A DNA stretch of 64,000 nt from Psammoneis japonica (GCA_008632985.1 QPGO01000027.1:372001-436000); one strand, 5' to 3'. Numbered from the stretch's first letter, positions 1-57,332 are shown. A program made the numbers and translations. The notes: generated by a model not told the origin, from the letters alone.

Positions 1-13
1 TTCTCTCTACTAG

Positions 14-2911: not shown

Positions 2912-4348
2912 ACTCGTACTCTGACACCTGTGCAAAGAACAAAGAATGCAATGGGGAGGATTAGAAAATTAGCTGTAGGAAAAGGTCTGAATTATGTAAA
3001 AACATTACAACCCGATATCTGGCCGACAGAACTTACTCTCTCGTTTCTCGTTGCAGTCGATACATACTCGTACGGTGTGAAATAACTCTCTTGATATCAC
3101 TTGTGGCATTTGGCAACAACCAAAAGATCCGTTGAGTTTGCTTTGCATGTTATATATCCTTTGTTTTGTGTCAACAAAAAATGAGAACCCCATTCATGAC
3201 CACTCTTCGCGTTTTTGCTTACGTTGTCAACAACGAGAGCAACATACGGCGCGGCGGTTTCGCGGAATCCAATGCGGTTAAAAAGTTGAAGCCATCGCCT
3301 CAACACTACCTCTTGCCTTGAATGTATGAATGGAGAGGTCAACGATCTTTGACCTTTACCATCTGTCTTCCATCGTCGTTTCGCATTCACCTTCATTCAT
3401 CACGGCGCGTCTATTTACAAAGTGCTCAGCACAGCATTTGCACACGGCGCTGCATTTTTTGTTGTGGTGGTGAAACATCATGTGCTGCAGACGGACAAGA
3501 GGTGCATGCTGTAGCGTGAAATTTCGCGCGGCGGCGAAAACAGTGTTGTTTTTTCGTCACAGCCACACCCAGCACGTTTTGCGAGATCAATTGCTCCGTT
3601 GACCTCTCTTGCCATTGAGTGAGGTGTCGTTGAATCAGAAATCAATGTGAGAGTCCATTTTCACCCTTGTTTTTGAAAATCGGTTGTAAACTCGTTGAGC
3701 CAGTCATTGAGACTGCTGTTTTTGCCTGTTTCTGCTTCCATCGTTGGCCTCGTCGTTTGCTCTTTGCTGGTGCATCTTCATCCGATGGCTGTCATGGCTC
3801 GGATTGTTTGTTTGTTGTGTTGAGAAGAGTGTCTGAACCATGCACTGTTGTGGGGAATGTTGTCATTGCAACAAAAAAGTCGTTTGGTGAGCAGCACCGT
3901 GGCTTTTTGTCCCATCCCGTTGGCCACATCATTCGCGCTTTGCGGGTGGCGCGGCTTCATCCGTTGTCTTTCATGGCTCGGACCATTTGTTCATTGTGTT
4001 GAGAAGAGCACCTGATTGTTTCATTGTCATGGGGAGTGTTGTCATTGCAGCACAAAGTTGTTTTTGCCATCACTTTCTTTGTGGTCATGCAGCTGATGGT
4101 GCTTTTTGTTTTTGTTGTTGCTTTGAACAGCTTGGTCAGTGGACACACGTGCCATGAGGAGAGTGAGCAACCACATTGAAAGCAAACACAATCAGCTGCA
4201 ATGGCATTGTCAGAGAAAAATGACGCCAATCCACACAGAAAACAAGTGCAGAGTGCTCCAAGAAATGGGGCAACAGGGGGGCATTTTCAGCACACCGGGG
4301 CAAGGATCTGTCCAAGACGTGCCTCACCATTGCTTTGAAGATTCCAAG

Positions 4349-4624
4349 TGACAGAAAATGAAGGCAAATGGCAAGAATTCAAACAACAACTCCTTGCTGC
4401 TGTCTAAACAGCAGATGAGTCTCCGCTCAGAGACCGTTGCAGGAGCCGAAAGACGTGCAAGTCGGTGCAATCGGGCTGCTGTTGTTGTTCTTGTGAGCCT
4501 TGTGGCTCGAAAGCAAACTACATCGCGCGTGAACGCGCGGAACCAAAGCACACAAAACTGTGCACGGTGAACTAAACAGCGCGCGATGCTTCGCGCACAC
4601 CCAAATCCTGTTCAAATCCTGTCA
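4349..4624 (-). repeat. 3' LTR of Copia element
   Basis: Direct repeat of 11753-12028 with 12 mismatches and no indels. Confidence 0.97.
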
Positions 4625-7600
4625 CTCCCCAGTTTGCTTGAGGAGCCACAGAAACAGATTCGACTTCGGATGGAATGAAGTTCCAGAACATGAGGGGGCG
4701 GAGAAGGTCCCAGATTTGGGAGCAACCCCAATGCTTGCTGAGAATGTCAGCAGGGTTGCGGGAGCCTTCGATGAAGTGGAGCTCAAGGCAACCAGAGGCA
4801 ATTGCCTCACGCACACGGTGGAACGACAGTGCGGTGTGTCGCTTGTGTAACTTGGAGTGCGGGATGGTGGCACTGTCTACAACCGACTTGTTGTCACCGA
4901 ACATGTAACTGACGTTATGGATCGGGACGCCAAGGCAGCGCAGGGTGATGCGCAGGTCGACAATCTGCTCAACACAAGTCCTTGCGGCAACAAATTCAGA
5001 CCCGCAGGTCGCAGTCTCCACGGTGGCTTGTTTCTCAGAGAACCAATCAGCCGGGAATTTGTTGAGGAAGTGGAGCATTCCCATGACAGAGCGTCCGGTG
5101 AGCATGCAATGGCACAAGTTTGCATTGACGCAGTGGGTGGCAGTGACGAACTTGCCAAGGGGCGGTGGAGCGTCCTTCGGGATCATCTCTTCTGCTTCAC
5201 CACACACGGAATGCATCCACTCACAGGCCGGAGCAGGGAGATCCGAACAGTCGGGCTCTTCCGTGCGAACGTGGAGAGCACCGTGTCGCATCTTGGAGAG
5301 GCACCCACAGACGCGCTTGGCACGATCCAAGTGGCCTTGACGGGGCGCAGCTCGGAAGCTAGAGAGTGACATGACGGCCGTGGCAATGTCAATTCGACCA
5401 AGGGACACTGCCCATTGGAGTGAACCAACAAGAGACTGGAACTTGTGGATGCCATCGGGTCCCAGCAGTTCGGAAGTGTCCAGTTCGGGGTGGTCACCCT
5501 TCTCTAGAGGTGACAGGGCATTGGTGGCAGGTTTCTCCCCAAACAGTCGGGCACAGCTGTCGACCATGCGCTCGATGTACTTGCGCGGAGACAGGCACAA
5601 GGTTCCGTCGGGTTCCCGGGAAAAGTCGCAACCCAGATGGAACTCAATGGGTCCCGCACCCTTGAGCTTGAACTTGTGCTTTTCCGTGAGGGTGTCGACG
5701 AAAGATTGAGGGTCCTTCATGGCAATGGCGAGGTCATCCACATAAACGGCAATGTGTTCACAGTGGTCGCCGTTCCTGCGCATCCAAATGTCGGGTTCGG
5801 CGCGGCAGGGGAAGAAGCCTTCAGCTCGCAGGCAGTCGGCGAAGCGCTCGTGCCAGTGGAGACCGGAGCTGCGCAGTCCATGCAGTGCCTTGTGGATGAC
5901 AAGGATGTGTCCTTCGAGTTTGCCGAACTCGGGTCCAGCTGCAATGTAAAGCTTCTCCTTGGTGGTGGCTTCAAGGCAGGCATTGCCAATGTCGGTGGCC
6001 CATGTCTCCAACTCGTTGAGTTCGGCCAGGAAAATCATCAGCCGAAGGCCACGGAGGGAGACCACTCCGGAGCAGACACTGTCGATGGGTGCGTCCGTGA
6101 GGTGCCCGTCGGCTGCGAGTCATGCCTTGTGGCGACCGTCGTGTTTCACGTCGCACACCAGGTGCACTCGGATCTTCTTGTGTCCCGCAGGAGGAGTGGA
6201 AGACTTGAAGGGCCCACAGTCATGGAAGACTTCGTACTCGTCGAGTTGGTCCATCTCGAGATTAGTTGCGTCTCCCCACTTGCGGTTGCCGTTGCGTTCG
6301 TCTAGTGACATGGCGTGTTTGCAGTTCCGGGGAACTTCGCATCCACACTTGTAGCGAGGTGCAGTGCGGAAGGAGCGAAGCTTGGCTTGGTTGGCCATGC
6401 GAAATAGCTTCTTTTGGCGCCTCGCGATGGTGCGGAACCGCTTCCAGCCATCCGTGTCGAGGAGTCCGTTCTCTCGTGCATAGATGGCACAGGTGACGGG
6501 GTCGTCCTTGGCGATGATGGCAAGAGGCTCGGACGTGATCTCCCCACTTTCCCATTCAAGCATGATGTTGTAGCTGGAGCCTTTCCAGGTTGGGTCGTGA
6601 GGCTTCAGAGGTCCTTCGTGTGACACGATGCGTCGAAATTTCCAAACAGTGGTGTCTTCGTCTTCTTGCTCAATGTGATTCATGATGTCATTGCAGGCAA
6701 GGACTTCCTCGTATTCGTCATTGTTGACAGAGCAGACGAACTTAGTGAGCTCGGGATTGCCGTTCACTTTCCATTCGTGGTCTTCGACGGCCTTGACGAT
6801 GCGAGCTCTGTGGCGTTGTCCGTCCTCTTGTGGCTGCATGAGGAAGGCACGTCCAATGATGTCTTGCGGATCCAAAACTGGCATCTTGGGTGTCCTGATC
6901 TCCCCATCAGGAGAGTCGACGGGGTTGTCGTCATGGCGAGATTTGATGATGGGTTCAGGTGGCTCCCCATCAGGAGGATCAAGACGCAGGTTTCGGACAG
7001 CAGGATCGGGGGCAGCGGAGCGGACGTTGGACCGGCAGAGGATCTTCTGATTCTCGTCAGATAGAATCTTGAAGGTCATCTGGTGGCCGACGTGCTCAGC
7101 AATGCCAATGAAGCGTCCACGCAACTCACGGGATTCGGACGGCCAATCGGAGTCATCGAGGTGGAAGCACACGGGTTCCCACCAGTGAAAGCGAAGCAAT
7201 GGGCTGATGTCCGGGGTGGAGCCAGTGAGAGTCTCAAGGGGCATGCGCCAGTGGAGACGTGGGGACGCTGCATGGTTGAGTGTGAAGCACACGCACATGA
7301 GCGCCAGCAGCCATGCATGGGCGGGCGAACCAAAACGATCCATGACAGTGTTCGCCATGCGCTTCACGGTCTGGCATCGACGCTCGGCAAAGTTTTGGTG
7401 TTGCTGGTGAGGCTCACTTTGCCAGCTAGAGATGAAGAGGGCGCGTAGGATCCCGAGCACTTTGTTGCTGATCTCAACTTGAGCACGGTCGCCAATGAGT
7501 TTGGATGGGGCACCACGTTCACGGATCTGATCCTCGAGTGTGTTGACAAACTCTTTGTCCGTCTCAGTGCCATGGACGTCAGTGACGGTAGACTCGGTGC

Positions 7601-9205
7601 CAACAAACAGTTGGGCGCTGGTGCAACCAGAGTCGACGGCCGGGGTGTCGGCACAAATGGTGTCAGTGGCGACAGGCTCGTTGCGGCGGTGCACATTAAG
7701 GGCGGGGTTGGGTGATTTGCAGGCCTTGCGAAGGTGTGTACCGGCGGGCATGCGGGCGCACTGCGTGGTGCAGTCAAAAGTACGACGGACCGCATCGGCA
7801 GGCAGGAAGCCAAAGCAAGGCCGAAGAGACTCGAAGGGGGGGTCCTTGGGCTGTGCAGTGCGCTCCGGAGGTGGAACATCATCGCCCTGGGGGCCAATCG
7901 CATGCAGATGACACTCGTAGAACACGTCGTCGTTCGGAATGAGGTGATCATCGAGGACGGACGCGTGATCGGCAGACAAGGAAGCGGACATGATGGTCTC
8001 GTTGACAACGACACGATGACGGTAGTTGCCGCATTCGTCAAATGGGTTGGCAGTGGGATCGTCCTGTAGGTCAGAGATCGCGTCGTACCACTGGTCGTCG
8101 TCAGTGACAGAGTGATCGAGGACGGAAGGGTCCCATGTGTCATCACCGGTGAGGATGACATGGGGCAGGGTGTCCCATTCGGCGTCAGTGTAAGGTCGCA
8201 TGGCAACACAAGGCAGGCCAGCCTTGATGTCAATGGGGATGACATGGCCATCAGGAGTGGCAGTACGTTGCAAGCCGTTGGGCACCTTGACAGAGCGATC
8301 GTTGACATCCTGTTTGTGCCATTCGAGCTGGCCGCAGGAATGGATGGTCTTGCCCTTGCCCGTGCATGCGTGCTGATGGAGCATGGTGATGACGGGACCA
8401 CGCTGGGTCTCAATGACGGCACCAGCGGTGACAATGGGGATGTCCACCAATTGATGATCGTCAATGCCCTGAACGTCGACTTGGCGAGAGGTGCGTGCAA
8501 TGACGCGAACGTCGTCGCCAGCAATGCCGCCGTTGGCCCCACGATCGACTAGAGCGCCAGTGCGTGTGGAGCGATGAGCAGAAGCAGAGCAAATGACATT
8601 GTGGTTGTTGATGCGGCGGCAAGTGCGACCGTCAAGTTCCATGTCATCTGCAGAAGCTGGCGGGGTAGAGGAAGCGGCGGATGGCCCCGGTCGACTGGCA
8701 TTGGGGGCTTGGTTAGGAGACAACAGACGTTGCAGATCACCGGGTGGCAGTGGCTTGCGCTTGGTGAGGTGCACCAGGATGGGATTGTCCGAAGTGGCGT
8801 CCACATGTGGAGCGGAGTCACCAGAGTCAGCAGGAGTCGTGTTGGACAAGTTGACATCACCGTCACTCCCAAGGCGTTGGTCGTGAAGGTTGGCCGTAAC
8901 AGACTCATGGCAGTTGCTGGCTCGCGGGTTGCGGGGAGGTGGATGAGAATGCTCAAGGATGATCGCCTTGGAGGAATCGGGCAACGAATCCCAGAGCCGT
9001 TGGTGGTCGGGAGGGAGACGTCTCCATTGGACACCGGTGAGGCTGGGACCGCGGGTGCAGGCAGCATTGGCTTGAAGGACGTCAACGTCGCTGTCAATGT
9101 CGTAGAACACATCGTCGGACGGTTCCTCGGAGCAGACGTCGTGTGCGCACATGGCGCGTCGGGGAGCTCGAGGTGTCGTCTTGGGTTGAAACGTGCTGTC
9201 GTGCT

Positions 9206-9573
9206 TGATCCCACCGCTTTCACGGCTCTCAAATCCGACAAGCAGTGGCACACTTGGCACACCTCACTTGTGGCACAAGCCCGTGCCCAAGACGTCGAGT
9301 GCATTCTAGACTCGTCGTACAAACCGACCAGCCCCGAAGACAAACTGCTCTTTGCTGAACAGCAAAAGCACATGTTCGCCGTCTTCGAACGCATCCTTCT
9401 CACCGACAAGGGCAAGGCTCTCATTTGCGAAAATGTGGGGTCTTCTGATGCACAGACCGTCTGCCGCTCCTTGTCTGAGCACGCGCTTGCCTCCACCCGT
9501 GCATCTGTCGAGTCCTCCACCCTGCTCACGCACCTCACCACCGCGCGTCTTGGTGATGGCACTTGGAAAGGTC
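9206..9573 (+). repeat. Inverted copy of gag segment 10009-10376, probably an assembly chimera from another copy or allele
   Basis: 368-bp reverse-complement match; the junction falls on a GATC present in both partners; abuts the N gap. Confidence 0.85.
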
Positions 9574-9916
9574 NNNNNNNNNNNNNNNNNNNNNNNNNNN
9601 NNNNNNNNNNNNNNNNNNNNNNNNNNNNNNNNNNNNNNNNNNNNNNNNNNNNNNNNNNNNNNNNNNNNNNNNNNNNNNNNNNNNNNNNNNNNNNNNNNNN
9701 NNNNNNNNNNNNNNNNNNNNNNNNNNNNNNNNNNNNNNNNNNNNNNNNNNNNNNNNNNNNNNNNNNNNNNNNNNNNNNNNNNNNNNNNNNNNNNNNNNNN
9801 NNNNNNNNNNNNNNNNNNNNNNNNNNNNNNNNNNNNNNNNNNNNNNNNNNNNNNNNNNNNNNNNNNNNNNNNNNNNNNNNNNNNNNNNNNNNNNNNNNNN
9901 NNNNNNNNNNNNNNNN
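9574..9916. other. Assembly gap (N run)
   Basis: 343 consecutive N. Confidence 1.
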
Positions 9917-11752
9917 CTTCTGTCCTTCAGAGAAGTGGTCACTGGCCGGGATGAGTGCCTCGCACTTGCGCAACTGATCTTGCCAATGAAGGATGAACCC
10001 GTGGGTCGGACCTTTCCAAGTGCCATCACCAAGACGCGCGGTGGTGAGGCACGTGAGCAGGGTGGAGGACTCGACAGATGCGCGGGTGGAGGCAAGCGCG
10101 TGCTCAGACAAGGAGCGGCAGACGGTCTGTGCGTCAGAAGACCCCACATTTTCGCGAATGAGAGCCTTGCCCTTGTCGGTGAGAAGGATGCATTCGAAGA
10201 CGGCGAACATGCACTTTTGCTGTTCAGCAAAGAGCAGTTTGTCTTCGGGGCTGGTCGGTTTGTACGACGAGTCTAGAATGCACTCGACGTCTTGGGCACG
10301 GGCTTGTGCCACAAGTGAGGTGTGCCAAGTGTGCCACTGCTTGTCGGATTTGAGAGCCGTGAAAGCGGTGGGATCACGCTTGATGCCTCGCTTGAAGTCC
10401 CGCACCGGGTCGCATGCCTTGGTCGGGTTGGTGACATGTGGAGGTGCAAGGGGTGAGCTGCCGATGGACACAGAAGACATGCAGTCGGGGCTGAGGCGGC
10501 AGGCAAGGAACTCGTCATGCGTGAACAAAGAGGAGTTGTTGGCAACGTCAAGACCTTTGTGTGCTTTGACAATGTACAGACTGACCAGTGCTGCTAACAT
10601 GTTCTTACAACCACGGGGCAAAGGGATTGCATCAGTGCCGTTGTCGCACTCAAGCGAGTCGATTTGGGACGGCATGAACGTGAACAGTTCCTGATGCGAG
10701 TCCGTGCCGTCTTGGGCCAAAGCCAAACGAAGAGGACTCCCAGCACCTTGGGCAAGCACGGTTCCAACCACGTGCTCGAAACCATCGGTTTGTTGCTGAC
10801 GAGTGAGAACCATGGCAGACAAAGGTGGTGTCAGGACAATCAATTCTGGTTGGGAAGCGAAGGTAGACTCGAAACTTGGGTGAGAACAGACTTGACTTGA
10901 AATGGACTTGACTTGAAATCTTGAACTGTCTTAAAATCAGAAGTCGCCGGGCTTTGTCATCCCGTTCGTTGTCAAGTGCTAAACTTCCTGTCCGGTCCGT
11001 AGAGTTGTGCCGGCACGTCCGAACCCGCAGCTGGCGGCGCTTTGGGTTGCTTGCGAGCGGAGCAGCGGGTTGCAAACCCCTGCAGGCAAGCTGACTGGAG
11101 GTGGACAAGACCCCCGAACCGTTCTTATTTTGTGTCGGTTGGATTTCCCGATCAGGCTGGCCAGTTGACGCAGGCGTCAGGCGCTGTGGACGAACGAACA
11201 AACGCGGGAAAGCACCCTCGCCCCAACGCAGGCTGCAATCACGGCTGCCTGCTCTCACAGTCGTCCTCGTGGACCCAGCAGAACTGCAGAGCACCAGTGG
11301 TCCGGGGCAGATCAGGTGCAATGGACTCGGTGTGCTTGTAGAGTGGCAGCAAAACCGTGGTCCAAAGAGTGGATAAAGGTTCTTGGCCGTGAAGACATGT
11401 GTGTATGTGCACATGTCTTCAGCGACGAAGATCCTTGAACATGTGGGGTTCTTGACCGTCAACCGAGGAACAGGCAAATCAAGGGATGTTGATCAAGGAT
11501 AGACTTGGATATGACCGTTGAATGTAAGTCTTCAGCGATCAAAGGCAGCACAATCAATCCAGACATCCAGCGGTGAGGAGACTTGACGGTGACGTTAACT
11601 TCCTGCCGATGCCCTGGTTTGAATGCGCGTAGACTTGCCGATGTATGTAGAAATATACGGAGGTCCACGTAGAATTGAAATAGCGTCGTTGGTAAATCAA
11701 CGACGACGATGGCGGTTGCTCAATGGGTTGACAATGAGCAAGACTGCCAATC

Positions 11753-12028
11753 TGACAGAAAATGAAGGCAAATGGCAAGAATTCAAACAATGACTCCTTG
11801 CTGCTGTCTAAACAGCAGATGAGTCTCCGCTCAGAGACCGTTGCAGGAGCCGAAAGACGTGTAAGTCGGTATAATCGGGCTACTGTTATTATTCTTGTGA
11901 GCCTTGTGGCTCGAAAGCAAACTACATCGCGCGTGAACGCGCGGAACTAAAGCACACAAAACTGTGCACGGTAAACTAAACAGCGCGCGATGCTTCGCGC
12001 GCACCTAAATCCTGTTCAAATCCTGTCA
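11753..12028 (-). repeat. 5' LTR of Copia element (less mutated copy)
   Basis: Direct repeat of 4349-4624; keeps 12 TA dinucleotides versus 3 in the 3' LTR. Confidence 0.97.
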
Positions 12029-14599
12029 CCAAGGGTGGAAGAAGAAGCAAAGTTTGTCAAATGCTGTCTGTCATCCTTCTGGACAATGCCACACAGGCCA
12101 CCATCATCAGCAAAATGGGTTGATGCTGCCATCTCAAATGCTTTGTGCTTCAAACCTCCTTCATGTTCAAGTGTGCAATCCTCTCCAAATTTGCCAAGTC
12201 TTGCACATTGGAAGGGGATGGCACATCACCAAGGACCACATTGAGTGCACTTCCATGGGCAATGCCGTGGATCACTCTGTGACAAGCCCAGGCTCATTGC
12301 GCACTCCTGAACCCCAAATTGTGCACCTTTTTTACACTTTGTGCAGTGTGCACAACTCCACTTGTCTCTGGCACTGGATGATGACAAGACACATGACAAT
12401 CCAGTTGAGTGAGAAAGCAAGAAGCAAAGTGATGCTGCCAACATCTGAGCAGCTGTTGTTGTTCCTTCTGCACTGCACCATCTGTTTGCACAAGAGACAC
12501 TTCTCATTGTCAAAGCAGCTGTCATGTGCAGTTGGAAGAAAAAGAAATCAGAGGCAGAAAAGCTGAAAAAAGCACTGGAGACTTCAAGGAAGGCTGCTGA
12601 GAAAGCTGCTGCCAAAGAAGCTGCAACAAAGAAAGGAAACCACCAGCCAATGTGTCAATTGCTTCTGTGCTCAAGATGTCTGAAACGAACTTCGACGAGG
12701 ATTGTGAGCACTTTGGAGCCCCGCTGAAATCTGTTGGAAAGCTTGAGAACTGGTGCAATGTTGAGTGGAAGTGGAGCAAGGCAGGTCAAGAGATCAATTC
12801 ATTTTGACTGCAATCCAGATGCACATGATGTTGCAGTTGTGAAGGTGTTGCAGGAGAGCAAGAAAGAAACTGAAGCAAAGCACCAGGATGTGTGATGAAA
12901 CTGGCGAAACTGGCACGCCATGTCTGCACGCCAACCAAGGGAAGGAGCGAGCACAAAAAGAAGGGGGGAAACCATGAGGGTTTGGGAATGGCAGCGTGTT
13001 TGCCATGAGACACATCTGGCCATGTCTGAAGCTGCATTTCTGGCGGTCCTTGTTCAACTTTCCCATGCTTCAGTTGAGTGAGTTTTTTCTCAGCTCAACA
13101 AGTGTGCTCTTGTTGAGACAGCTCAGCACAACATGTTGCACAAAGATGCCACTTTGTTGCATCTTTTTTTCTTGTTTGCACACAGCACATGCTGTCAATC
13201 AAGACCACCAGTGGTGCTGCAAGAGAGAAGCCTTGAGTCAAAGAGAGCCATTTCTCAGCTCTAGCATGCTTCCATGGTGCAACTTTGTTGTGTCATTTTT
13301 CACATTGGCACAAAGGATGAGGATTCAGCAGCAAGCACAGTGCAGCAGTGTGATGTGATTAACAGCATGATGCAGTGGCAATGTCCCTGGTCCATTCCTG
13401 GTCTCACACATGTGAGACAGTGCAGAAATTTTGGTCACAGACATTCTTTGGGTCATTCTGCCCCCTGTCTCACAAACAATGTGAGACCAGGATTTTGTTC
13501 ACATCAATGTCATCATGTGCCACATGAAATTGGATGCACACCTCATGCAACATCCGGCATGTGCAACTGAATGAAAAAAAGGCAGCTTCAAAATGTTGTT
13601 CCTGTGGAATTTTGCATGTTTTCCAGTGCAAATCATGGTCTCACATGTCTGAGACCAGGGTCACATTTAGACCTGAAATGCCTCTCCCCTCCGGATGCAT
13701 TGTGGAAAGCCACTTCACAGGTTGTTTGAACAATTTCAACCACCAGACACTTTCATTTGAGAATGTTTTAGCTCCTTTGGTCTGCTCAGGTGTCAAATGA
13801 CCAGTTCCATGCATGGTTGTGGGTCACTGAAAACCTGGTCTCAGAATGGTGAGGCCAGGATTTGTGGACCAGGAACATGATGCACTGGTGATGCAATGCA
13901 GCAGCAATGTAAAATGCAATCAAGAAGCAACAAACAGCATCACATTGCCAGCTGCCAGCAATGAAGCATGGCTGCGCTGAACCTGGCACTGCACTGCACA
14001 CATTCTGCACAGTGCACACTCTGTGCAATGCATTGTGCGCTCCACTCACTGAAAATCAAAAATGGGCCTGGCCCCACTTTTTGACATTTCTGATTGGGTT
14101 TCACACCAGTGTGACAGGGAAGAAAGTTTCTGTTGACATCCTGCAACCACCCCCCACAAAGCCATCCATTGCCCAGCATCTGTGCAAACCCTTCAACTCC
14201 AAGAGCTTTGCAGCATCTGCCCTGCCTGATGCAACACCCTCCAGAGCTGGTGATGGCAAATTTACCTTGATTCACCCACCATCACCACACCAATCAGCAG
14301 TTGCAGCACACCTTGAAAAAGGCCCAAAACTGTCAAAAGTTTGTGGGGCCAAGACATGCAACATGGACCGTTCCTCTCCACCCATCAACCCCTTCAATGC
14401 AAATGCTTTCAATTGAGTCTTTGGCATCTGATGTCAAGACAAAGAATCAAAAACTGAAATCTGGTGCATTTTGACCTGTGAGTGCACATCATGTCAGCAA
14501 TTTGAAAGAAGTCTCACCTGCAAATTGTGCACCAGCCCATGAGCCAACATCCAGCTGTCATCATGCATCACAGGAAATGGCTCCAGCAAGAACTGCACA

Positions 14600-15020
14600 A
14601 GCCTTTTTGAGTGGTTCAACATCAACCCATCTTCCAGACAGCCAAACCTGGATCCAGGAACATTCTTGAACCCCCAAGACCAAAACCATGTCAGACATGA
14701 TCTCCAACCCATCTTTGATCAACAAGGACAACCTTCAGAAGCTGCACTTCCGCTGTGAGCAACCCATGCATGCAGGGAATGTCATCATTGAAAACAACAT
14801 GCTTGTCATCTGCAAATCCATGATTGACTCTGTTGGAAACTTCGCCAAACTTCAAATCATGCCATTTGAGAATCTTTGGAATGTGACATTTGTCATGTTC
14901 CACACAAACCCCATTGGAAGCCACTTTAGCATGCACCGCACCTTCCACCACATCTGACTGCAATGCTTCTGGCCAAACATGCACAAGCACATCACAAACT
15001 GGATCAGCAAATGCCTTGCC
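14600..15020 (+). pseudogene. Degenerate retrotransposon integrase zinc-binding (HHCC) fragment
   Basis: LQIMP...FHTNPIGSHFSMHRTFHHI*LQCFWPNMHKHITNWISKC resembles the H..GH.G...T...R..YWP.M...I...C motif, with Tyr->His/Cys and Arg->stop changes. Confidence 0.6.
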
Positions 15021-16399
15021 AAACTCAACAATGAACTTGAACTCAATGGGGTGCATGCCAAAGATGGGTTCTCACAAGCAACAGTGGACTGTCTCAAACC
15101 CTCATCAAATCCCATTTTCATTGAGGTGCTTGAAGGCATCAATGCAAGTGTAAACAACAGCATGGACTTGACACTTGACTGGCCCTCACAGTCCACAAAA
15201 TTGGAGCACCAACTGCACAGCAAAACCACAAACCATCCCAACCGGCATCAAATCTGAGCCACCTCATGTCCTGCATCATCCAGAGTGAGCACAACAAGCA
15301 GTTCTTTGTCTCATGCTGAGCCCCTGGCACTGCTTGCACTGAGTGGAATCTCATTCAAGCAAATTGAACACTGTGGCCAAATGCCCTGATGCATTTTCAG
15401 ACAACAAAATCTGCGTTGAATTTTTTGCTCATCATCCACACCACAATGATGTGCAGCTCAGCACCCCAAATCAATGCTGTTGGAAAGAGCATCACTGACT
15501 CAACAGCAGGTTTGTTCTCCACAACAATTTCCACCTTCTCAAGCCATCACCAAATGAGCACAGTTGTGCACGTGAAAAGTGCTTGATTGTTTTCTTGCAG
15601 CGGGTGCATGTCAATCACCCAGATGTGTGCCTCAACGGACCCTTCAATTTTGCAGTGATCAGGCATGCAATTGTGTGTTCTCCACAGACTCCTGGAAAAT
15701 CCTGTCATCATTGTCGCAACAACACATGAGAATGAAGCTCCAACCAAACAACCGTCAAACCTGTTGTTCTGGCTCAACATCATGAACATGCAGTTTCACA
15801 CCATTCATTGGGACCCTGCAATGGAAGCCCAGGCATTTGCCCTTCTCACTCACAAACATGTGCACAACAATTAAATGCTGAGCTCTCACAAGCTGTCAGA
15901 CCATCAAACGATCCACAACCACCATCTCCTCTTAAATGAGTTGCTCCCAAAAGATTGGCCTGGTCCAAAACCATTTTCCCACCAAAACAGAAACCACCCA
16001 AAATGGCACCCCAGCCCAAAATGGGCACCCCCACAATTTTTCTTTTTCATTCAACACCCCTCAGGTTTTTGCAAATCATGCTTTTTCTCCTCACCCATCA
16101 TCCTCTCCAACATCATCCCCATGGTGTTCTGTCTGCATGAAGCATCTGAATCTTGTCAAAAGCTCCACAGCTTTTGCCATCTTTTTTGGGTGGCTTGAAA
16201 GCAGAGCTTGTCAAAGCTGATGTCAGCAATGCCCAATTCCAGAAAGCTGTCAACCATTGGCACATGAGTTGCCAATTGTTGGCAGTTTTCCTCTTTCCTT
16301 GCCACTTTTTCAGTGCACCACAGGAGAGCAGCTCACAATCTGGGTGATCATCACTCACTTCCATGCCACTCCACTTTTAAGAATTGATGATTCTTTTTT

Positions 16400-18700
16400 G
16401 CTGCAATGCAGCAAAGTGCAGCACACATGTTCACAAAGCAACAAATGAAGACATTCAACCTGTGGCAAGAGCTGTTCCATGCAAACTCAAGCAATGTGCC
16501 ATTTCCTTGCTCACGGGGTCCATGCTCAAGTTCCACACATCAGCCACATGCCCAACGGCAGCATTTGCATCGACTGCATCATCCTCATCACGATCCTCTT
16601 GTTCATCCCAAACATCAACATCTTGCAATCATTCCATCCTTTTGTGTCGTCAATGTGGAACATGACATTGGTCAGAAGACACGCTCTTTGCAAGGCCCTG
16701 CATGCCAAGGTTGGTCCTTTGCATTGACATTGCTGACCCACTCTTGTGACTTCCTCTGTTGGCACCCCAGGCAGCTGCAAGGCATCCGTTGCACCAACGT
16801 GGAGCTTGTCCCAGCACAAAGTCTACAAAGAGATCACAGTGTGCCTGCAAGCTGTTGTGCTCACCTTTTTCAAATCCCAATGGTTGTGCCACTTTGCAAC
16901 AAGATGCTCAGGCCAGAGAATGTGCGGTTGTCACTCTTTTGTCTTCCTGTCCATGTGAAGCTTCCTTCAACATGAGTGGCTGATGACTCCATGTGCCCCA
17001 TCTCTGGATCACTCAAGACCTCAAAAGCTGCAGCTGCCAGGCCAGTGCACTCCTCTCCATCCACTGCATGAGTGCTGATTTTTTGTTGTCATCTTCTGGT
17101 GCAGTCTTGGGCTGGGACACAAGACAAGTGAAGCACTTGTCCAGTTCTGTCTTGTTGGCTCCATTTTGTGAGTCCACCATGCCCTTTTTTTGCCCAAGAG
17201 CCAACACTGCTTGGCTGTGTGTGATTTTGAACTCAAACACCAGGAGCAACAGAAGGAGCAGAGCTGCTCTGCTTCAGTGCTGGCAACAGCAGCCATCCAA
17301 ATGGTCCAACATTTTCTTCATTTTCTCTCATGTCATTTCACCCCATTTGACAAGGTTCTCAAGCATGGCTTTGATGTTCTTGCACATGGTGGCTGCATCC
17401 CACTGTCTCTCAACTAACAAACATGAGCAGAGCACCATTTTTCAATCTGTCTTGCCTTGGACCTTCAAGTTGATGGTGGCTCCTTCCATTGACACATTTT
17501 GATTGTTTCCAAGCCTTTCAGACACAATGTCTCCATCAGGTGTGGCATCACACCACTCAGCATGATCTCCATCTCCTTGCTCATTTCTTGACCACATTCA
17601 TTCATTGCTCCCCAACATGATGACATGCATCCCATTGTGGAACATCTTTTTGAGACATTTGGAGCACATTCCTTTTCTTGCCATGAAGTCCTTCATCAGG
17701 GCTCTGACTCTTGCCCTCAATTTTCCAGAGGTGATGTTGGGCCTTTTCTTGAGCTTTGCCTTTTCCTCCTCAGTCATTTTCTCACACCTCACATTTGTTG
17801 CTTCCCTTGTGAATGTGACCTGTGCTGTGGATGTTGCATTTCACAAAAGTTGAGAACACATTGCAGCTGATGGGTTCATTGCAATCCTTCTCCAATTGGG
17901 GGCTTGTTGCACAGGGCAGTTGGGGCATCTCCTGAGAACACAAAGTGAAGATGGGAGAACACTTCAGTGTTGCCACAACTGACAGTTTCAGCAGCATCCC
18001 ACACTCTTTTGTGAAGAGGCATGCCATCTTTGTGCAATGTGCTTTGTCTGTTGACTCTGCTTTGTGCATGAGCCATTGCACCCTTCTGCCATGCCAGTGG
18101 CTCAACAACTCTTGTTTGTCATTTCATGTGACACAAACTTTGCAACCACACATTTGCCTGCTCCTCTTTGTCATTTTTGACACCCAGTTGGGCATGAATT
18201 TTCTGAGTGCTGTCTCTGGCAACAAACACAGCTCCATTGTTGTCCCCTGAGCTCCACAAAATCCACCACTCCTGCTGGGATCTTGTGTCATTTTGTTGCG
18301 CAGTTCTCAAGGCAACATGGCAAGCAGCTTTCACTGTGTTTCTTCATGCTTGTTGTCACATCTCCTTCTTGTGACCCTTGCCCATTTGTGAGAGCATGTT
18401 GGCACACAACATCAGCGGCAAATTTGCAACAGCAGAGACAAAGCAACCCAATGATGGAAAGACTTGCCTTTGTGGCTTCTCTTCCAAATGGTGTTGTTTT
18501 TAAGTGGAGAGTCCTTCATGTGTCTGTTCTTCACAATCCAATCTCTCAAGCCTTCAATGAGCTCATTGGGGCATTTTGACCATGGTCTCTTTTTCTCTGC
18601 CAACTCACATGATGCTTCATCCCCATTCTTTGCTTTCCTTCTCTTCTTCTCCAATCTGGCAAACAAGCAAGATCCAGCAGCAGCAACCAGGATGCCAAGC
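16400..18700 (-). pseudogene. Degenerate DDD transposase relic, Sola2-like
   Basis: Minus-strand LDHLDGCCCQH*S (~17270-17310) back-mutates to SDGCxxQYRS, followed by LALGQKKGMVDSQNG (cf. HGKGxxDG); upstream Cys motif QMCGCKVC. Family assignment is from remembered motifs; limits approximate. Confidence 0.5.
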
Positions 18701-19378
18701 TGGTGGCTCAGTGCTGAGTCTTCAGGTGATTCAGGAGGGGCATGTTTGCTGTTGTCAATCCAGTGCCATTGGCAATTGCACGGCATTTGTCCATTGGTTG
18801 GCCATTGTTTGACTTTGTTTTGCTCATGGCTTTCAAGAAACTCCTGGTGTTTTGAGCCATTTGCATGCTGACTTTTGCCTCCTCAGAATTAAAGCCAGCC
18901 ATTGATGATGAAACTGCTGTGACTCTTGGATCTGCAAGGGTGCCTTGTGATGCCAGCAACCATTGTTGATCAAAGTTGCCTGCGCTTGGCATTGCAACTG
19001 CTGTCGTGTGTTTGGCCCTGTTCTTTGCCCACGTTGCTGCCTCAGGTGCGTCATTTCCTTGCCACAATTGCCTGCTCAAATTGCCTGGCTTGTGATGGCA
19101 ATGCGCAAACTGACCCAACAGATTTGATGCATCTGGTGTTGGCAGATCTGCAAGCTGGTTGCAACATTGCCCATTTTGGTTGCAGTGTTGCCCACCTTTG
19201 AGCAGCGCCACTTGTTGCATCAGAGTCTTGAGCTGCTGATGGCCTTGTTGAAGTCTGCAATCATTTTGCTCAAAGCAGCACCAGCTTTTTCTTTCTTTGA
19301 CCCACTGAACAGCAAGTGTTGCATCCACAATGCCCAAGAAATTGACTGCATGAAAACAGCTGGGACTGGATCCATCTC

Positions 19379-20225
19379 TGACAGGATTTGAGTGAGATTT
19401 TAGTTCGTCACACATGATTGTGTGTGCTCTCAGTTCCGCGTGCATCGCGATGCAGTTTGCTTTCGAGCCACCAGCTCACAAGAACAACAACAGTGGTGCC
19501 AACATCACGACACCAGTTTTTCGGCTCCTGTGACGGTCTCTGCATGGAGACTCATCTGCCATTTAGACAGCAGTGAGGAGTCATTGGTTTCTTCCACCCA
19601 GTCATCTTCATTTTCTGTCAGTCCGCAAGGACATGCGTTGAGCAGATCATTGATCTGCACATCACTTTGCGTCACCTTGGTGTCCCCATTTGTGAAACAT
19701 GTTGCATGTTTGGGGACAACAAGTTGGTTGTGGACAGTGCTGCCATCCCGCACTCCAAGTTGCACAAGCGACACACCGCCCTCTCATTCCATCATGCACG
19801 TGAGGCGATTGCCTCCGGTTTCCTTGAGTTTCATTTCATCAAAGGCTCCTGCAACCCAGCTGACATCCTCAGCAAGCATTGGGGTTGCTCCCAAGTCTGG
19901 AGCCTCCTTCGTCCTCTAATGTTTTGGAACTTTGATCCTGAGGCTTTCAACCAATCTGACCTCGAATCTGTCGCTGTTGATGCCTCAAGCAAACTGGGGA
20001 GTGACAGGATTTGAACAAGATTTTAGTTTGTCACGCACAATCATGTGTGCTCTTAGTTCAGCGCGCATCGTGCGTGCGATGTAGTTTGCTGACAACAGCA
20101 GTGCCGACATCGCGACACTTGTCTTTTGGCTCCTGCAATGGTCTCTGCACGGAGACTCATCTGCTGTTTAGACAGCAGCAAGGAGTTGTTGTTTTCTTTC
20201 ACCCAGTCATCTTCATTTTCTGTCA
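19379..20225 (+). mobile_element. Non-autonomous deletion derivative of a closely related Copia (LTR - RNase H tail - PPT - LTR)
   Basis: LTRs 19379-19620 and 20002-20225 are similar to the reverse complement of 4349-4624; TSD ATCTC at 19374-19378 and 20226-20230; the 381-bp interior encodes ARTCVEQIIDL...NPADILSKHWG; PPT AAACTGGGGAG precedes 20002. Confidence 0.92.
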
Positions 20226-26200: not shown

Positions 26201-28687
26201 TTTGCTTGACAGAGCAGCTGCCAGTGGTCCACAATGCTGGCACAAATGCAAGTCTTTTTGTTGAAAAAAGAAATGGGCTCTCATGAGTCTGTGCACAATG
26301 AATGCTTTGGAGATGGTGTGGCAACAGAAGCAAGCCTCACTCTGTTCACAATCATTCTCATGGAGAGGAGAAAAAAATGATCAAGAGCACACAGGACATT
26401 CCCAGCTGGGGTGGGGAGGAGAGGCAGTGCTGCCACACATGATCCAGGGATTTGACACAGCTGCAAACCAACAAAACATTTCCAGTTTGGGGCTGTGTGT
26501 TGCTGCAAAATCTTCTGTCATGTGCGTGTGCAAGATGGCAGCACCAAATGGATGCTGGCCAGTGCCTGAATCATCACACAGGCCACACTTTGTTGGCTGA
26601 AGACTCCAAAGCCATGAGGGGATGGCACAACAATTGCCAAAGAAATGTCTGGACAAGTGCGCTCTGACAGAGCATCATCAACACCCCAAGTTGACACTCC
26701 AGCTGAGCTTGAAAAAAATGTCAATTGCCCTTGGTCACCTTGGTCCTCAGCTCTTCAATGCAGGCATCTCATGGTGGTGTGTTGAGCACTCTGGCTGCAG
26801 CAGCCAGATGTTGCTGGATTCATGGGTGCCTCCATTGTGCGCTGTCACCTCCCAAAAAGGCACTGAAGAGCTGGCAGCTGTTTGTGATGGTGTTGACTGC
26901 ACTGCTCAATTTTTGAACAAGAGAAACAATTTCATCTCACATGAGTTTAATCCCATCTGAAAATGCTGCATTTTTTTGCAGTCTCAAGAGGTGCAGTGCC
27001 AGCCAGCAGCTGGTGGACAGATGGTGTTTGTGAACTCAGGCCAAGCTGGGCTGCTCAAACATTTTCTGTTGCCAAATTTTGTTCTGGCCTCTGAGCACAC
27101 ACTTGATGGGAACAACATGGCATGGCCACTTCCTGTGTGTGTGCACATTTCAGGTCAATGTTTTTTGTCCTTTTTCCCATCTTGTCCTCCAAAAAGACAG
27201 TTTCCTGGCAAACTTTTGTGTTGCAGCACTGTGTGCTTCCAGCAACATTTCTGAAAATGCCCCTGGGACACCCCTCTTGTCCCACACAAGACAGAAGCAT
27301 GGCACAACATGTGAAATGCTCCCTTTTGGTTGTCGCTGCCCCATTGTTGCATTTTCAACCAGTGCTGGATCTTTGTGACACATCCTTCCTTTTTCCTCTT
27401 TTTTTTTCTTCTTGGGTTGTTGCAACACTGTCAGTCAAGCTCAGGCAAAAAAGCTCTTTTGTGAAACCCGCGTGGCACTTGACTGGCAGTGCTGCTGTTG
27501 ATGGTGAGCAAGGAGGGTTGGCGAAGCATCCGCACGGGGCAGCTGGCAGCTGAGGTCTGTTTGGTGCTGCGCCACATGCAAGGCCGGCAGGGACACAGGA
27601 GTGCAAACACACACTTGACAATTGCTGGACTGGTGCAAGCACAGAGACAGTTTTTTGGCAAAGTGCCTCATGAGTTTGCTGCGGGGCTGCAAGATCAAGC
27701 CCTTGCCAAATGGCGGCTGGTGTGTTTGCGGTGGAGTGTCAGATGGGAGCTGCTGCAAAAAACACCAGGGTGTCAGAAAGCTTGGCTCAACAGTGCAGAT
27801 GCAGTCAGAGACACCCACTGGCAACTTCAAGATGAGCTGCGGCAGATGGCGTGGGAGAGAGCTGGCATGTGAGCTGATGGGCTGTGGGGGAGCGGCTCTG
27901 CATGAATGTGGCTGACAGCAACACTTGCAATCTTTTTTCTGCTGCACCCACAAGAAGAGCAGAGGGCTGGAAAAATTCTGCATCATTTAAATCTTTTTGC
28001 AAGGTTGACTCAAACTGGTTGGGTGGCTTTTTCTGGAACAATGTTGTGCGCGCTGGATGACTCATGGCGATGCAAAAGTCATTTTGCGCGGCAACAAGCT
28101 GGGCACTTTTTCGCTGCTTGCCCCCTTTTTGGCGACAACTGCACACCACCTGTCACAAAGCTGTGTCAGTCAGGGGGCATGATCTCACTTGTTGCAGAGT
28201 TGCAGGGGATCCTCACATGCCTCACATTTGTTGTGCTTCACAAACTCAGACTTTTGAGCAGCCTGTGTGGCAAAAGCGAGCAAGAGGAGACAGCGGCTCT
28301 GGAGCAGATCATTCTTTGGCAGCCACAGCATGATGATGTCACTCAAAGGCCCCACCCAAATCACCTTGTTGATCTTGCAAAACTGACCCCATGTTCATGT
28401 GCATGGTGGCCGCCGCCGCCAGGTCTGGAGAGAGTCGCTCAATTGGGCCTCACAGCCTGGCGGCCTGCCGGGGCGATGGATTTTGCAGATTGTTGCACCA
28501 TGCTCTGCGCAGAACTGTGAGCACAAAATCCCACAAGGGTTTGTACTTGATTGCCAAAAATGAACTCTCCAAGCTGTGCTGTCCATTCCACTCTGGGGAG
28601 GGGCGTGGCGTGCTGGATTTGCAGTCGATCCTCGAATGCCTTGCAATTTTAGCCATCATATTTTAATTTTAGCCCGTCACTGTGCAT

Positions 28688-30049: not shown

Positions 30050-30112
30050 ATAATGTAACGTACTTCCACATAAATTACTTTACATACTACACGGTGTCAT
30101 CTATCAAAACGT

Positions 30113-57300: not shown

Positions 57301-57332
57301 ATTGTGTGGTGGCATCCACAAATGCCCAGCTG

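Follow-up and report, generated by a model that had tools for sequence, protein, structure and literature searches.

A probable TpA-erasing process on mobile DNA of a pennate diatom, inferred from one 64-kb window

Background

The two long terminal repeats (LTRs) of a dead Copia element raise the question of whether a mutational process that removes TpA dinucleotides acts on mobile DNA, and, if so, in which direction and at which stage it operates. RIP, known from Neurospora and other ascomycetes, consists of C>T changes, mostly CpA>TpA, and thereby creates TpA and stop codons; it requires duplication, a premeiotic stage, and a RID cytosine-methyltransferase homologue. Deamination of methyl-CpG cannot touch TpA. 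The TadA/ADAT2 adenine deaminases require T or U at position -1 and favour a pyrimidine at +1, their natural tRNA target being UACG, and base editors derived from these enzymes share the preference for T at -1 and a pyrimidine at +1. ADAR, in turn, favours G at +1.

A preprint reports that, of 231 A>G/T>C mutations in mutation-accumulation lines of Bigelowiella natans, 230 fell within two integrated viral regions, every one at TpA (Mettrop et al., April 2026, bioRxiv 10.64898/2026.01.13.699255). According to the same source, the strongest targets were an NCLDV and a virophage insert, in which TpA still stands at 3.3% and 9.2%, and RT and DDE domains were over-represented among TpA-poor coding sequences. 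The preprint proposes an ADAT2-like deaminase, and cites DNA activity of the amphioxus and trypanosome ADAT2. A diatom methyltransferase, DNMT4, is described as related to RID (PMC9998398), a relation that concerns cytosine.

Results

The Copia element and its LTR pair

The window, that is, the whole 64-kb stretch of DNA that was analysed, carries host genes of pennate-diatom affinity and the following Copia features:

4344..4348, no strand: target-site duplication (TSD) CCAAG, left copy
4349..12028, minus strand: Ty1/copia LTR retrotransposon, diatom CoDi-like, dead copy (LTR pair, TSD, RVT_2)
4349..4624, minus strand: 3' LTR, mutated copy, 3 TpA remaining (LTR alignment, TpA counts)
4572..9263, minus strand: pol reading frame with one in-frame stop, extending into the 3' LTR
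9574..9916, no strand: scaffold gap of 343 N within the element
11753..12028, minus strand: 5' LTR, mostly unmutated, 12 TpA (LTR alignment, TpA counts)
19379..20225, plus strand: short non-autonomous Copia relative with two diverged LTRs, a 400-bp RNaseH end, and the TSD GAGAT

Three hallmarks of Ty1/copia are present: LTRs with TG...CA termini, an RVT_2 reverse transcriptase (E 2e-20), and a perfectly matched 5-bp TSD, whose right copy lies at 12029-12033. The closest relatives, one of them named Cylindrotheca fusiformis, are 69% identical. Since RVT_2 is found within 4572-6119 on the minus strand, the element runs on that strand, and the repeat at 11753-12028 is its 5' LTR. The sole in-frame stop of pol is a TGA at 6120-6122, a position occupied by Arg in relatives, so that no TAA or TAG stop arose in 1564 codons. 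As an assembly oddity, 9203-9573 is an inverted copy of 10009-10379 (371 bp, 97.6% identical). For an integrase upstream of RT and for gag and protease domains, a Pfam search of the 1047-, 793- and 280-aa frames returned no family at E up to 0.001; such domains may be concealed by divergence, by the N gap and by the many mutations.

The 276-bp direct repeats at 4349-4624 and 11753-12028 differ by 12 mismatches, with no indels and no transversions. At nine of these, TA in the 5' LTR is matched in the 3' LTR by TG (differing base at 11871, 11882, 11888, 11891 and 11973) or by CA (11862, 11872, 11948 and 12006). A further mismatch pairs CG at 12001 in the 5' LTR with CA in the 3' LTR, and the two neighbouring mismatches at 11791-11792 give TG in one LTR and CA in the other. 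The observation that opened this study, a sequence-only reading in which 12 mismatches comprised nine TA versus TG/CA, one CG/CA site, one reciprocal TG/CA site and no further substitution type, is thus confirmed; its TG sites are also correct, except that their coordinates were one base low, being those of the T of TA. Beside the 12 and 3 TpA listed above, the 5' and 3' LTRs contain 20 and 19 CpG. TA<->TG/CA changes make up just 20-23% of the possible transitions in these LTRs, and the chance of at least nine such mismatches among 12 is P = 7e-5 to 2e-4; that all nine TA lie on the same LTR has a two-sided p of 0.004.

Direction of change

By itself, the LTR pair is just as compatible with CpA>TpA changes on the side of the 5' LTR, and the direction was therefore read from outgroups, both at the protein and at the DNA level. 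Conserved Tyr is swapped for Cys or His throughout the RT-RNaseH part of pol. Compared with 24 database homologs, the Copia RT/RNaseH has Cys at 10, His at 2, Phe at 1 and Tyr at only 2 of the 15 columns that are at least 80% Tyr; Y>C/H accounts for 12 of the 31 changes across 275 conserved columns, and the reverse changes are absent (C>Y, 0/2; H>Y, 0/13). A second, independent comparison, with 55 relatives from metagenomes, gave 16 Tyr columns, at which the Copia copy has Cys 10, His 2, Phe 1 and Tyr 3. Among these relatives themselves, 48 of 55 have no Cys or His replacement at the 16 columns, and none has more than one. The gypsy RT shows His 3, Cys 1, Phe 1 and Tyr 2 at seven Tyr columns.

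At the DNA level, where a dinucleotide was counted as consensus TA if at least 70% of the relatives had TA, 18 consensus-TA dinucleotides read TG (10), CA (3), TA (4) or TT (1) in the Copia copy, while none of 41 consensus CA/TG became TA. Consensus CG was unchanged at 4/4 sites and AA at 22/24, and non-YR dinucleotides remained unchanged in 77-100% of cases. Conserved ApA became ApG at 0/24 sites, versus 10/18 for TpA to TpG. In addition, four repeat pairs contain 1, 4, 2 and 8 sites with a CA-versus-TG double difference, the LTR pair of 19379..20225 having eight; such sites imply a TA or CG ancestor that was struck independently in the two copies. The only LTR outgroup within the window, a related family of 77-87% identity, gave a mixed signal, in that sites 136, 139 and 221 point to TG as the ancestral state and 196 to TA, with one more site split.

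Taken from these protein and DNA outgroups, TA as the ancestral state and TG/CA as the derived one is supported. The sequence-only reading had claimed this direction, and the outgroups bear it out (13/18 TA lost, 0/41 gained), although not as something "read directly" from the pair.

The TpA landscape of the window

The window is a mosaic of TpA-normal host-gene blocks and TpA-poor, transposon-rich tracts with sharp boundaries, as follows:

3700..11400, no strand: TpA-depleted tract 1, made up of the Copia body and the old flank at 3700-4348 (composition)
12029..28544, no strand: TpA-depleted tract 2 (composition)
28650..34160, no strand: control host-gene block, with a NUBP1/Mrp-like ATPase at 30440-31081 (minus strand)
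34161..40183, minus strand: Ty3/gypsy element, LTRs at 34161-34342 and 40002-40183, TSD GAGCG
40184..42650, no strand: TpA-poor gypsy flank with TCACTCAC and TCAG microsatellites
42651..53893, no strand: control host-gene block, with an RRM protein at 44964-45665 (minus strand) and others
53900..64000, no strand: TpA-depleted tract 4, TpA obs/exp 0.00-0.08, CpG 0.00-0.20 (composition)

TpA is nearly absent over about 42 kb of the transposon-rich tracts, where the TpA/ApT ratio is 0.03-0.08, and long open frames occur in all six frames, TAA and TAG stops having been removed along with TpA. Host-gene blocks have a TpA obs/exp of about 0.39-0.86 per kb: 0.39-0.86 in 28650..34160, with CpG at about 1, and 0.52-0.86 from 43001 onwards in 42651..53893, with CpG at 0.8-1.1; the value for 42001-43000 is 0.42. 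In the two young elements, Copia and gypsy, TpA obs/exp is 0.03-0.21 and CpG, at 0.54-0.96, is nearly intact, whereas in the old blocks TpA is 0.00-0.10 and CpG 0.00-0.42. The Copia element has an overall TpA obs/exp of 0.22, and its RT region 0.14; 80 relatives span 0.24 to 1.08. Tract 1 retains about 10-25% of the expected TpA, with CpG nearly intact within the element, and a TpA-normal island is formed by the 5' LTR and the neighbouring leader (about 11600-11752). For gypsy, TpA is 0.03-0.20 and CpG 0.54-0.96, and the switch from TpA-normal to TpA-poor falls exactly on the LTR edge at 34161.

In tract 2, the per-kb values as far as 28000 are 0.00-0.10 for TpA, 0.00-0.42 for CpG, and about 2 for CA and TG; the part at 27334-28544 has zero TpA, yet normal CpG. 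The sole Pfam trace in this tract is a sub-threshold Integrase_H2C2 at 14958-15254 (plus strand). Tract 4 adjoins, at its start, a truncated GMC-oxidoreductase C-terminal fragment, and has a sub-threshold RVT_2 match at 61432-61725 (minus strand). Judged from the per-kb profile and the identity of the Copia and gypsy elements, TpA depletion is confined to mobile-DNA tracts, the oldest blocks of which are known from sub-threshold domain traces alone.

Sequence context

The motif that is mutated is 5'-TAY-3', its A being the preferred target and T being favoured over C at +1. Among 44 polarised events, 23 of which come from the leader and presuppose TA as ancestral at polymorphic sites, the nucleotide following the mutated A was C in 20, T in 16, G in 6 and A in 2. 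Strand-discordant sites favoured Y over R by 22 to 4 (p = 5e-4), and by 13 to 1 (p = 0.002) with the LTR and Tyr sites only. The surviving TpA independently tell the same story: YTAR makes up 48% of them in depleted tracts versus 15% in host blocks, and RTAY 7% versus 31% (chi-square p = 1.5e-25 for survivor context). ATAT occurs 0 times in tracts versus 70 in host blocks, and ATAC 0 versus 58. Four conserved TAY sites survive in RT, so that the motif expresses a tendency rather than a strict requirement. A T-centred process at 5'-RTA-3' fits these data too.

Assembly and read-level support

A flank-anchored X1 contig (record 7; X1 contigs are short, accurate, and omit rare variants) matches 12003-12400 over 398 bases with 0 differences, a stretch that takes in both the TpA/CpG-null flank and TA at 12006, and reaches 26 bases into the 5' LTR. 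Contig confirmation of the nine diagnostic LTR sites is confined to 12006, none of the nine being among the contig variants listed. The Copia family is extremely abundant, with 5672 X1 contigs placed and a summed word depth of about 3-6e5 over the LTR versus 62 in the unique flank. At 10537 and 10824, the window's own letter occurs in no X1 contig.

Discussion

We hold with high confidence that a directional, tract-limited TpA process has acted on the transposon-rich tracts of this chromosome of a pennate diatom, and it is likely that this process acts in situ after integration. It consists of a context-specific A:T>G:C transition, giving TpG, or CpA if the A of the other strand is struck. About 70-80% of TpA was thereby removed from the young gypsy and, except in the 5' LTR and neighbouring leader, from the young Copia, with CpG and all other dinucleotides left nearly untouched; in older tracts the loss exceeds 90%, and ordinary CpG>TpG/CpA decay is also nearly complete. 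The nine LTR mismatches reflect its action on the 3' LTR; the reciprocal site is an ancestral TA or CG struck in both LTRs on opposite strands, and the CG/CA site is one CpG decay event. Silenced mobile DNA, struck in the chromosome after integration, would be the target of a mutagenic genome defence that resembles RIP but operates on adenine. Action after integration is suggested by the LTR pair, the CA/TG double sites, and the depleted non-element flanks.

As for the enzyme, our tentative suggestion is a TadA/ADAT2-type adenine deaminase that acts on DNA. The observed TAY context fits it by analogy: A>I(G), T at -1 and a pyrimidine at +1 are common to these enzymes and the diatom tracts, although the natural enzymes edit tRNA and the tracts are DNA. 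Such a deaminase might turn A into inosine, read as G, after recruitment by heterochromatin or cytosine methylation. The 64-kb window contains no gene of this type, and no enzyme, modified base or de novo event was seen in it.

The same directional loss might arise by other chemistry, which we regard as unlikely though worth keeping in mind: a 5-hydroxymethyluracil/base-J-like mark at 5'-RTA-3' on silenced DNA could mispair with G or be excised and misrepaired, or error-prone patch repair of the Pol-eta type could write G opposite T. TAY on one strand is formally RTA on the other, so that sequence does not distinguish the attacked base, and the CpG decay of the depleted tracts implies chemically marked chromatin; we know of no thymine modification in diatoms. 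The Pol-eta WA>WG candidate of the sequence-only reading is a poor fit, since its motif predicts ApA>ApG, to which none of the 24 conserved ApA sites has changed. Diatom transposons are described as CpG-methylated (PMC9998398), a point in favour of a marked base. It is somewhat doubtful, moreover, that the LTR asymmetry and the spared 5' end are an assembly artefact, in which numerous younger copies, their reads collapsed together, supplied the 5' LTR and leader, so that the mutated copy faces a family consensus instead of the second LTR of the same insertion. The N gap and the misoriented duplicate mean that the TpA-normal 5' LTR and leader could be collapsed consensus, the repeat depth and contig number are high, and the unique contig covers only the outermost LTR bases; against this stand the perfect TSD and the anchored TA at 12006. 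The sparing could thus partly reflect repeat collapse, which would undercut the post-integration timing and the apparent sparing but not the direction, as the latter and the phenomenon itself rest on the composition profile, the Copia and gypsy outgroup comparisons, and the contexts of the surviving TpA.

That C>T at CpA, RIP-like or by non-CpG methylcytosine deamination, made the nine TA of the 5' LTR is scarcely credible. All nine sites would then have CAA, CAC or CAG contexts, and outgroup site 196, with T in both related LTRs, was counted for it; but 13 of 18 conserved TA became TG/CA as against none of 41 conserved CA/TG that became TA, no H>Y or C>Y is seen, TAA and TAG are absent from pol with its single TGA at an Arg position, and TpA is almost missing from the surrounding tracts. 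RNA-level A-to-I editing (ADAR- or ADAT-like) fixed by reverse transcription, or cDNA editing during retrotransposition, is very improbable. A U/T preference at -1 is common to RNA editors, and changes in RT lean towards the sense strand (TG 10, CA 3). Nevertheless, both strands are struck (5 TG and 4 CA in the LTR, 9 and 14 in the leader), the two LTRs differ, the non-element flanks 3700-4348, 27334-28544 and 40184-42650 are likewise depleted, old immobile relics show the strongest depletion, and G at +1 is disfavoured (6/44); the single strand, 3' G and matching LTRs of ADAR-type hyperediting are not found in the Copia element. Base-calling artefacts at a modified base, or selection and codon bias against TA in transposon genes, have almost nothing to recommend them beyond the caveat raised in the sequence-only reading itself and two TpA-poor relatives, L039 (0.24) and L041 (0.29). 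L039, kept in the Tyr test as L041 was not, has its Tyr intact, so that some lineages are TpA-poor without damage. A contig of word depth 62 matches the TpA/CpG-null flank exactly, non-coding LTRs and flanks are also affected, and the change to Cys or His at 12 of the 16 conserved Tyr columns amounts to damage and not adaptation. As a whole, a TpA-erasing process on mobile DNA is, in our judgement, quite probably the best explanation of this window.

The proposed process is like RIP in being a mutagenic defence with one dinucleotide-specific transition on both strands of mobile or repeated DNA, and in leaving sharply bounded tracts of aberrant composition and dead elements. It is opposite to RIP in that the diatom tracts lose TpA and TAA/TAG stops; fungal RIP was rejected as its identity on the direction and on the TpA/ApT ratio. 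The label "inverse RIP" given to the signature at the outset is thus upheld by the outgroup direction, the near-absence of TpA, and the CA/TG double sites. Methyl-CpG decay shares the tracts, its traces being the low CpG of the old blocks, the stop (CGA>TGA) and the one CG/CA mismatch. Its pace here is much lower, young elements having kept CpG when TpA was already low.

The sequence-only reading knew of no description of this signature. This no longer holds, as TpA-only A>G/T>C was measured in B. natans (bioRxiv 10.64898/2026.01.13.699255), so far the one report, a 2026 preprint on an alga unrelated to the diatom. As described there, B. natans likewise undergoes exclusively A>G/T>C changes at TpA, which yield TpG/CpA and leave a long-term footprint of TpA loss and CpA plus TpG gain, and they are limited to particular foreign or mobile stretches in an otherwise ordinary genome; restriction to TpA is seen here in 13/18 consensus TA and 9/12 LTR mismatches. 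The hosts differ, one a rhizarian and the other a pennate diatom, and the B. natans events were reported as seen de novo, whereas the diatom events are inferred from sequence. The diatom window adds the +1 pyrimidine preference and the coupling with CpG decay; the words trinucleotide, context, CpG and diatom are absent from the main text of the preprint. With host genes of a pennate diatom, this would be a second lineage with TpA hypermutation. Its targets are LTR retrotransposons and their surroundings (TpA obs/exp 0.00-0.10) rather than the viral inserts of the preprint, making the diatom case retrotransposon-directed and close to saturation.

RESULTS

Differences between the LTRs of the Copia element

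Two 276-bp direct repeats with TG...CA ends, at 4349-4624 and 11753-12028, delimit a Ty1/copia retrotransposon that carries the 5-bp target-site duplication (TSD) CCAAG on both sides. A Pfam search placed a reverse transcriptase domain (RVT_2, E 2e-20) on the minus strand at 4572-6119, which makes the copy at 11753 the 5' LTR. The LTRs differ at 12 positions and by no indels. At nine of these, the 5' LTR has TA where the 3' LTR has TG (five sites) or CA (four sites); the remainder are one site reading CG versus CA and one adjacent pair reading TG versus CA. Transitions that interconvert TA with TG or CA make up 20-23% of those possible in the LTRs, so that nine of 12 has P ≤ 2e-4, and all nine TA sites run in the same direction (p = 0.004). 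There are 12 TpA and 20 CpG in the 5' LTR, and 3 and 19 in the 3' LTR. Repeat alignment and the TSD thus bear out the nine TA-versus-TG/CA sites among 12 differences described in a sequence-only reading, whose coordinates, on recomputation, mark the T in every TA. That reading also took the direction of change from the pair itself; however, polarity cannot be obtained from two copies alone. No integrase, protease or gag domain was found by Pfam (E up to 0.001) in the other Copia frames, 6120-9263 and 8549-10930 on the minus strand; relatives in their length class do exist.

Direction of the changes

An ordinary CpA>TpA change (methyl-C or RIP-like) in the 5' LTR was the first reading, and was rejected on the outgroups and tract composition. 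Against 24 database homologs, 15 columns of the window's RT/RNaseH frame are at least 80% Tyr, and the window reads Cys at 10, His at 2, Phe at 1 and Tyr at 2 of them. In this comparison 275 columns are conserved and show 31 changes, 12 of them Tyr>Cys/His; the reverse replacements, Cys>Tyr and His>Tyr, are absent from the frame. An independent outgroup was drawn from 80 metagenome loci, 55 of which were retained (at most two stops, at least 400 residues). At 16 Tyr columns defined by these relatives, the window has Cys 10, His 2, Phe 1 and Tyr 3; among the relatives themselves, 48 of 55 have no conserved Tyr replaced by Cys or His, and the maximum in any is one. When the same 55 were aligned by codon, 18 dinucleotides were TA in at least 70% of them, and these read TG (10), CA (3), TA (4) and TT (1) in the window. 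None of the 41 consensus CA or TG sites reads TA there, and the other consensus dinucleotides are largely kept (CG 4/4, AA 22/24, others 77-100%). The TpA obs/exp of the Copia RT region, 0.14, lies under that of all 80 relatives (0.24-1.08). For the Ty3/gypsy element, 36 homologs with one long match, chosen among 150 listed, gave seven Tyr columns in the RT, at which the window reads His 3, Cys 1, Phe 1 and Tyr 2.

Double sites, with CA in one copy and TG in the other, are present in all repeat pairs examined: one in the Copia LTRs, four in the gypsy LTRs, two in a 371-bp duplicate within the Copia element and eight in a short Copia relative. Their sequence is as expected if an ancestral TA (or CG) had been hit independently in each copy; CA or TG ancestry is disfavoured because each needs two adjacent substitutions. 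Such hits would account for the TG/CA site that had been called reciprocal. Protein outgroups, DNA outgroups and double sites together support the earlier proposal that TA is ancestral and TG/CA derived, an "inverse RIP". Of the 1564 pol codons, one is an in-frame stop: a TGA where relatives have Arg (KARLVA), which is a CGA>TGA event at CpG rather than a TAA or TAG stop.

A short non-autonomous Copia relative in opposite orientation lies at 19379-20225 (TSD GAGAT), whose two diverged LTRs (84% identical) enclose just ~400 bp from the RNaseH end. It is TG/CA dimorphic also at the site homologous to 11791-11792. As an LTR outgroup it was discarded, being too diverged and polymorphic at the same sites, with a mixed polarity signal. 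A run of (TG)3 versus (CA)3 in the gypsy LTR pair was considered as strand-processive editing and dropped, because it could equally come from a (CG)3 run.

Composition of the window

All evidence comes from one 64-kb window, which is a mosaic with sharp borders (TpA and CpG as obs/exp):

1-3500, 28650-34160 and 42651-53893: host-gene blocks; TpA ~0.4-0.9, CpG ~1
4349-12028, minus strand: Copia element; body TpA 0.11-0.21, CpG 0.67-0.96
34161-40183, minus strand: Ty3/gypsy element; LTRs 34161-34342 and 40002-40183, TSD GAGCG, domains rve, RT_RNaseH_2 and RVT_1; TpA 0.03-0.20, CpG 0.54-0.96
12029-28000 and 54000-64000: older tracts; TpA 0.00-0.10, CpG 0.00-0.42, CA and TG each near 2

The left gypsy border is exactly the LTR edge, with TAs dense to 34116 and sparse from 34170. 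From the TpA and CpG profiles of the young elements and the older tracts, it follows that TpA loss is early and fast, and CpG decay later and slow. A 1.2-kb margin at 27334-28544 has one TA only but already a normal density of CpG, so that at this border the loss of TpA reaches farther than CpG decay.

Pfam searches of 41 and 134 ORFs from the depleted blocks returned only gypsy domains, a GMC-oxidoreductase fragment and two sub-threshold matches. The fragment (53717-54439, minus strand) is C-terminal (Pfam positions 81-139 of 139) and ends where a TpA/CpG-null tract starts (~53900-53960); it stems either from a host gene that the old transposon block truncated, or from a gene into which the mutation tract has spread. 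Microsatellites of TCACTCAC (22 copies) and of TCAG/CTCAGTCAGTCA adjoin the gypsy element at 40994-41172 and 41948-42004. The left part of the window holds a 69-bp tandem repeat and a diverged 170-180-bp tandem duplication (1288-1450; 3742-4063). A 984-aa open frame at 17-2968 on the minus strand, in a TpA-normal block, overlaps the 69-bp repeats in part and has no Pfam match. The best named relatives of a NUBP1/Mrp-like host gene (30440-31081, minus strand) are pennate diatoms: Synedra (76%), Fragilaria crotonensis (74%) and Phaeodactylum tricornutum (73%). One of the Copia relatives carries the name Cylindrotheca fusiformis.

Target motif

We pooled 44 events: the nine LTR sites, 12 Tyr codons and 23 leader sites at which the window has CA or TG and other genomic copies have TA, with polarity assumed for the last group. 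Immediately 3' of the mutated A stood C in 20 events, T in 16, G in 6 and A in 2. At sites with TAY on one strand and TAR on the other, the TAY strand was mutated in 22 cases versus 4 (p = 5e-4), or 13 versus 1 without the leader sites (p = 0.002). The contexts of surviving TpA provide a test independent of polarity. YTAR, which has no TAY on either strand, makes up 48% of the 190 TpA left in 42,465 bp of depleted tracts and RTAY 7%, versus 15% and 31% of the 853 TpA in 20,254 bp of host blocks (chi-square p = 1.5e-25). For example, ATAT numbers 0 in depleted tracts versus 70 in host blocks, ATAC 0 versus 58, and TTAG 29 versus 25. As read from these contexts, the target is 5'-TAY-3' with +1 T preferred over C or, equivalently, 5'-RTA-3' on the opposite strand. 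The motif is a new finding of this analysis.

The TpA-normal island at the 5' LTR

The 5' LTR and ~150 bp of leader (11600-12028) form a TpA-normal island in depleted surroundings. The island may have truly escaped mutation, as is conceivable for an active promoter, or its sequence may be a collapsed consensus. The family is hugely abundant, with 5672 short contigs of the compared set X1 matched to 10400-12400. Within the element lie a 343-N gap and an inverted duplicate, and just one LTR site, the outermost at 12006, is tied to unique flank (contig of record 7, 0 differences). These points make a collapse conceivable. If the 5' LTR is collapsed, the pair sets a mutated copy against the family norm; its polarity is still correct, and its timing is no longer proven. 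The X1 comparison over 10400-12400, which was aimed at polarising the nine LTR sites through other copies, found 115 variable places; none of the nine is among the 40 of these that are listed, and the contigs drop rare variants, so that 12006 is the one site inside the repeat whose locus-specific letter is confirmed.

The duplicate at 9203-9573, left of the N run 9574-9916, is an inverted 97.6% copy of 10009-10379, a part of the gag region right of the gap. Its 371 bp contain nine differences (four of CpG decay, four positions in two CA/TG double sites, and one transversion); a contig of another copy or allele has probably been misplaced here. Short X1 pieces, not counted as evidence, include one that fits the 5' LTR at 11814-11915 with 1 difference, others having 6; they hint that both LTR forms exist among copies.

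DISCUSSION

Our results show a directional, TAY-specific A:T>G:C process that is limited to transposon-rich tracts, affects both strands and is much faster than CpG decay. It would act in situ, on integrated DNA and after integration, because a single insertion has unequal LTRs, independent hits are present in both LTRs of older pairs, depletion extends to flanks outside the young elements (3700-4348, 27334-28544 and 40184-42650), and it is strongest in the oldest relics, which are immobile. The process would be a defence directed at silenced DNA, and a TadA/ADAT2-like DNA adenine deaminase is the leading candidate for the enzyme. TadA targets UACG, and ADAR prefers G at +1; the +1 pyrimidine preference seen here resembles the former, unlike the latter. 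Pol eta-type WA>WG mutagenesis, named as a candidate in the sequence-only reading, fits poorly because conserved ApA became ApG at 0 of 24 sites. On the other strand the same motif is RTA, and thymine-centred chemistry there is a possible alternative to editing of adenine.

To our knowledge, no cellular process that changes A in chromosomal DNA specifically at TpA was known before a 2026 preprint. The signature, earlier believed undescribed, has in fact been reported for the chlorarachniophyte Bigelowiella natans (bioRxiv 10.64898/2026.01.13.699255). According to the available text of that preprint, 231 of 302 new mutations in mutation-accumulation lines fell in two integrated viral regions, and 230 of these 231 were A>G/T>C, every one at TpA. 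The hypermutation occurred in some lines only, at ~6e-7 per site per generation; RT and DDE domains were enriched in TpA-poor CDS, and an ADAT2-like deaminase was proposed (bioRxiv 10.64898/2026.01.13.699255). The words diatom, trinucleotide, context and CpG are absent from its main text in the form available. Compared with B. natans as described there, the targets in the diatom are retrotransposons and the process is near saturation. A literature search, with most subscription journals beyond its reach, found no report of TpA loss in diatom transposons. In its available part, PMC9998398 deals with cytosine methylation of diatom transposons and a RID-like DNMT4; adenine is not its subject. The preprint is the one description of the signature found, and the window comes from a second, unrelated algal lineage, which points to a general phenomenon, not a curiosity. 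Ordinary LTR retrotransposons are the target in this lineage.

We put forward, at slightly less than an even chance, that diatoms possess a dedicated 5'-TAY-3'-specific adenine-editing defence that acts on silenced mobile DNA in the chromosome and erases most TpA before decay through CpG methylation shows. If true, the system would be shared with Bigelowiella, making it an ancient eukaryotic analogue of RIP that is widespread among SAR algae. The composition of transposon-rich algal genomes would then bear its imprint, and it could be the source of a natural adenine editor working in a double-strand-DNA context. Genome engineering is a field interested in such an editor. The TAY motif narrows the candidate enzymes. 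Diatoms whose Copia relatives are CpG-decayed and TpA-normal, when set against those with TpA loss, offer a handle on the enzyme; one metagenome relative (L071) has TpA 0.69 and CpG 0.04.

The process also has practical consequences. In such genomes, insertion ages dated by LTR divergence will be badly inflated unless TpA sites are masked. DNA free of TpA lacks TAA and TAG, and stop-to-stop frames are therefore long on both strands. With TGA its sole stop, it is a trap for gene prediction, giving spurious long ORFs in all frames; the 7.7-kb Copia element (4349-12028) has 48 frames of at least 80 aa, and its pol frame continues into the 3' LTR. In public protein sets, conserved Tyr appears as Cys or His in mutated copies: among database homologs, 7 of 7 conserved Tyr are replaced in P0266, 3 of 7 in P0250, 7 of 18 in P0028 (5 Cys, 2 His) and 2 of 16 in P0003. 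Two metagenome relatives are low in TpA, namely L039 (match 3-1211; TpA obs/exp 0.24, CpG 0.82), which keeps 10 of 12 conserved Tyr, and L041 (match 1599-2759; TpA obs/exp 0.29, CpG 0.69). Active elements exposed to the same mutational pressure are one possible explanation, a simple difference in codon usage another.
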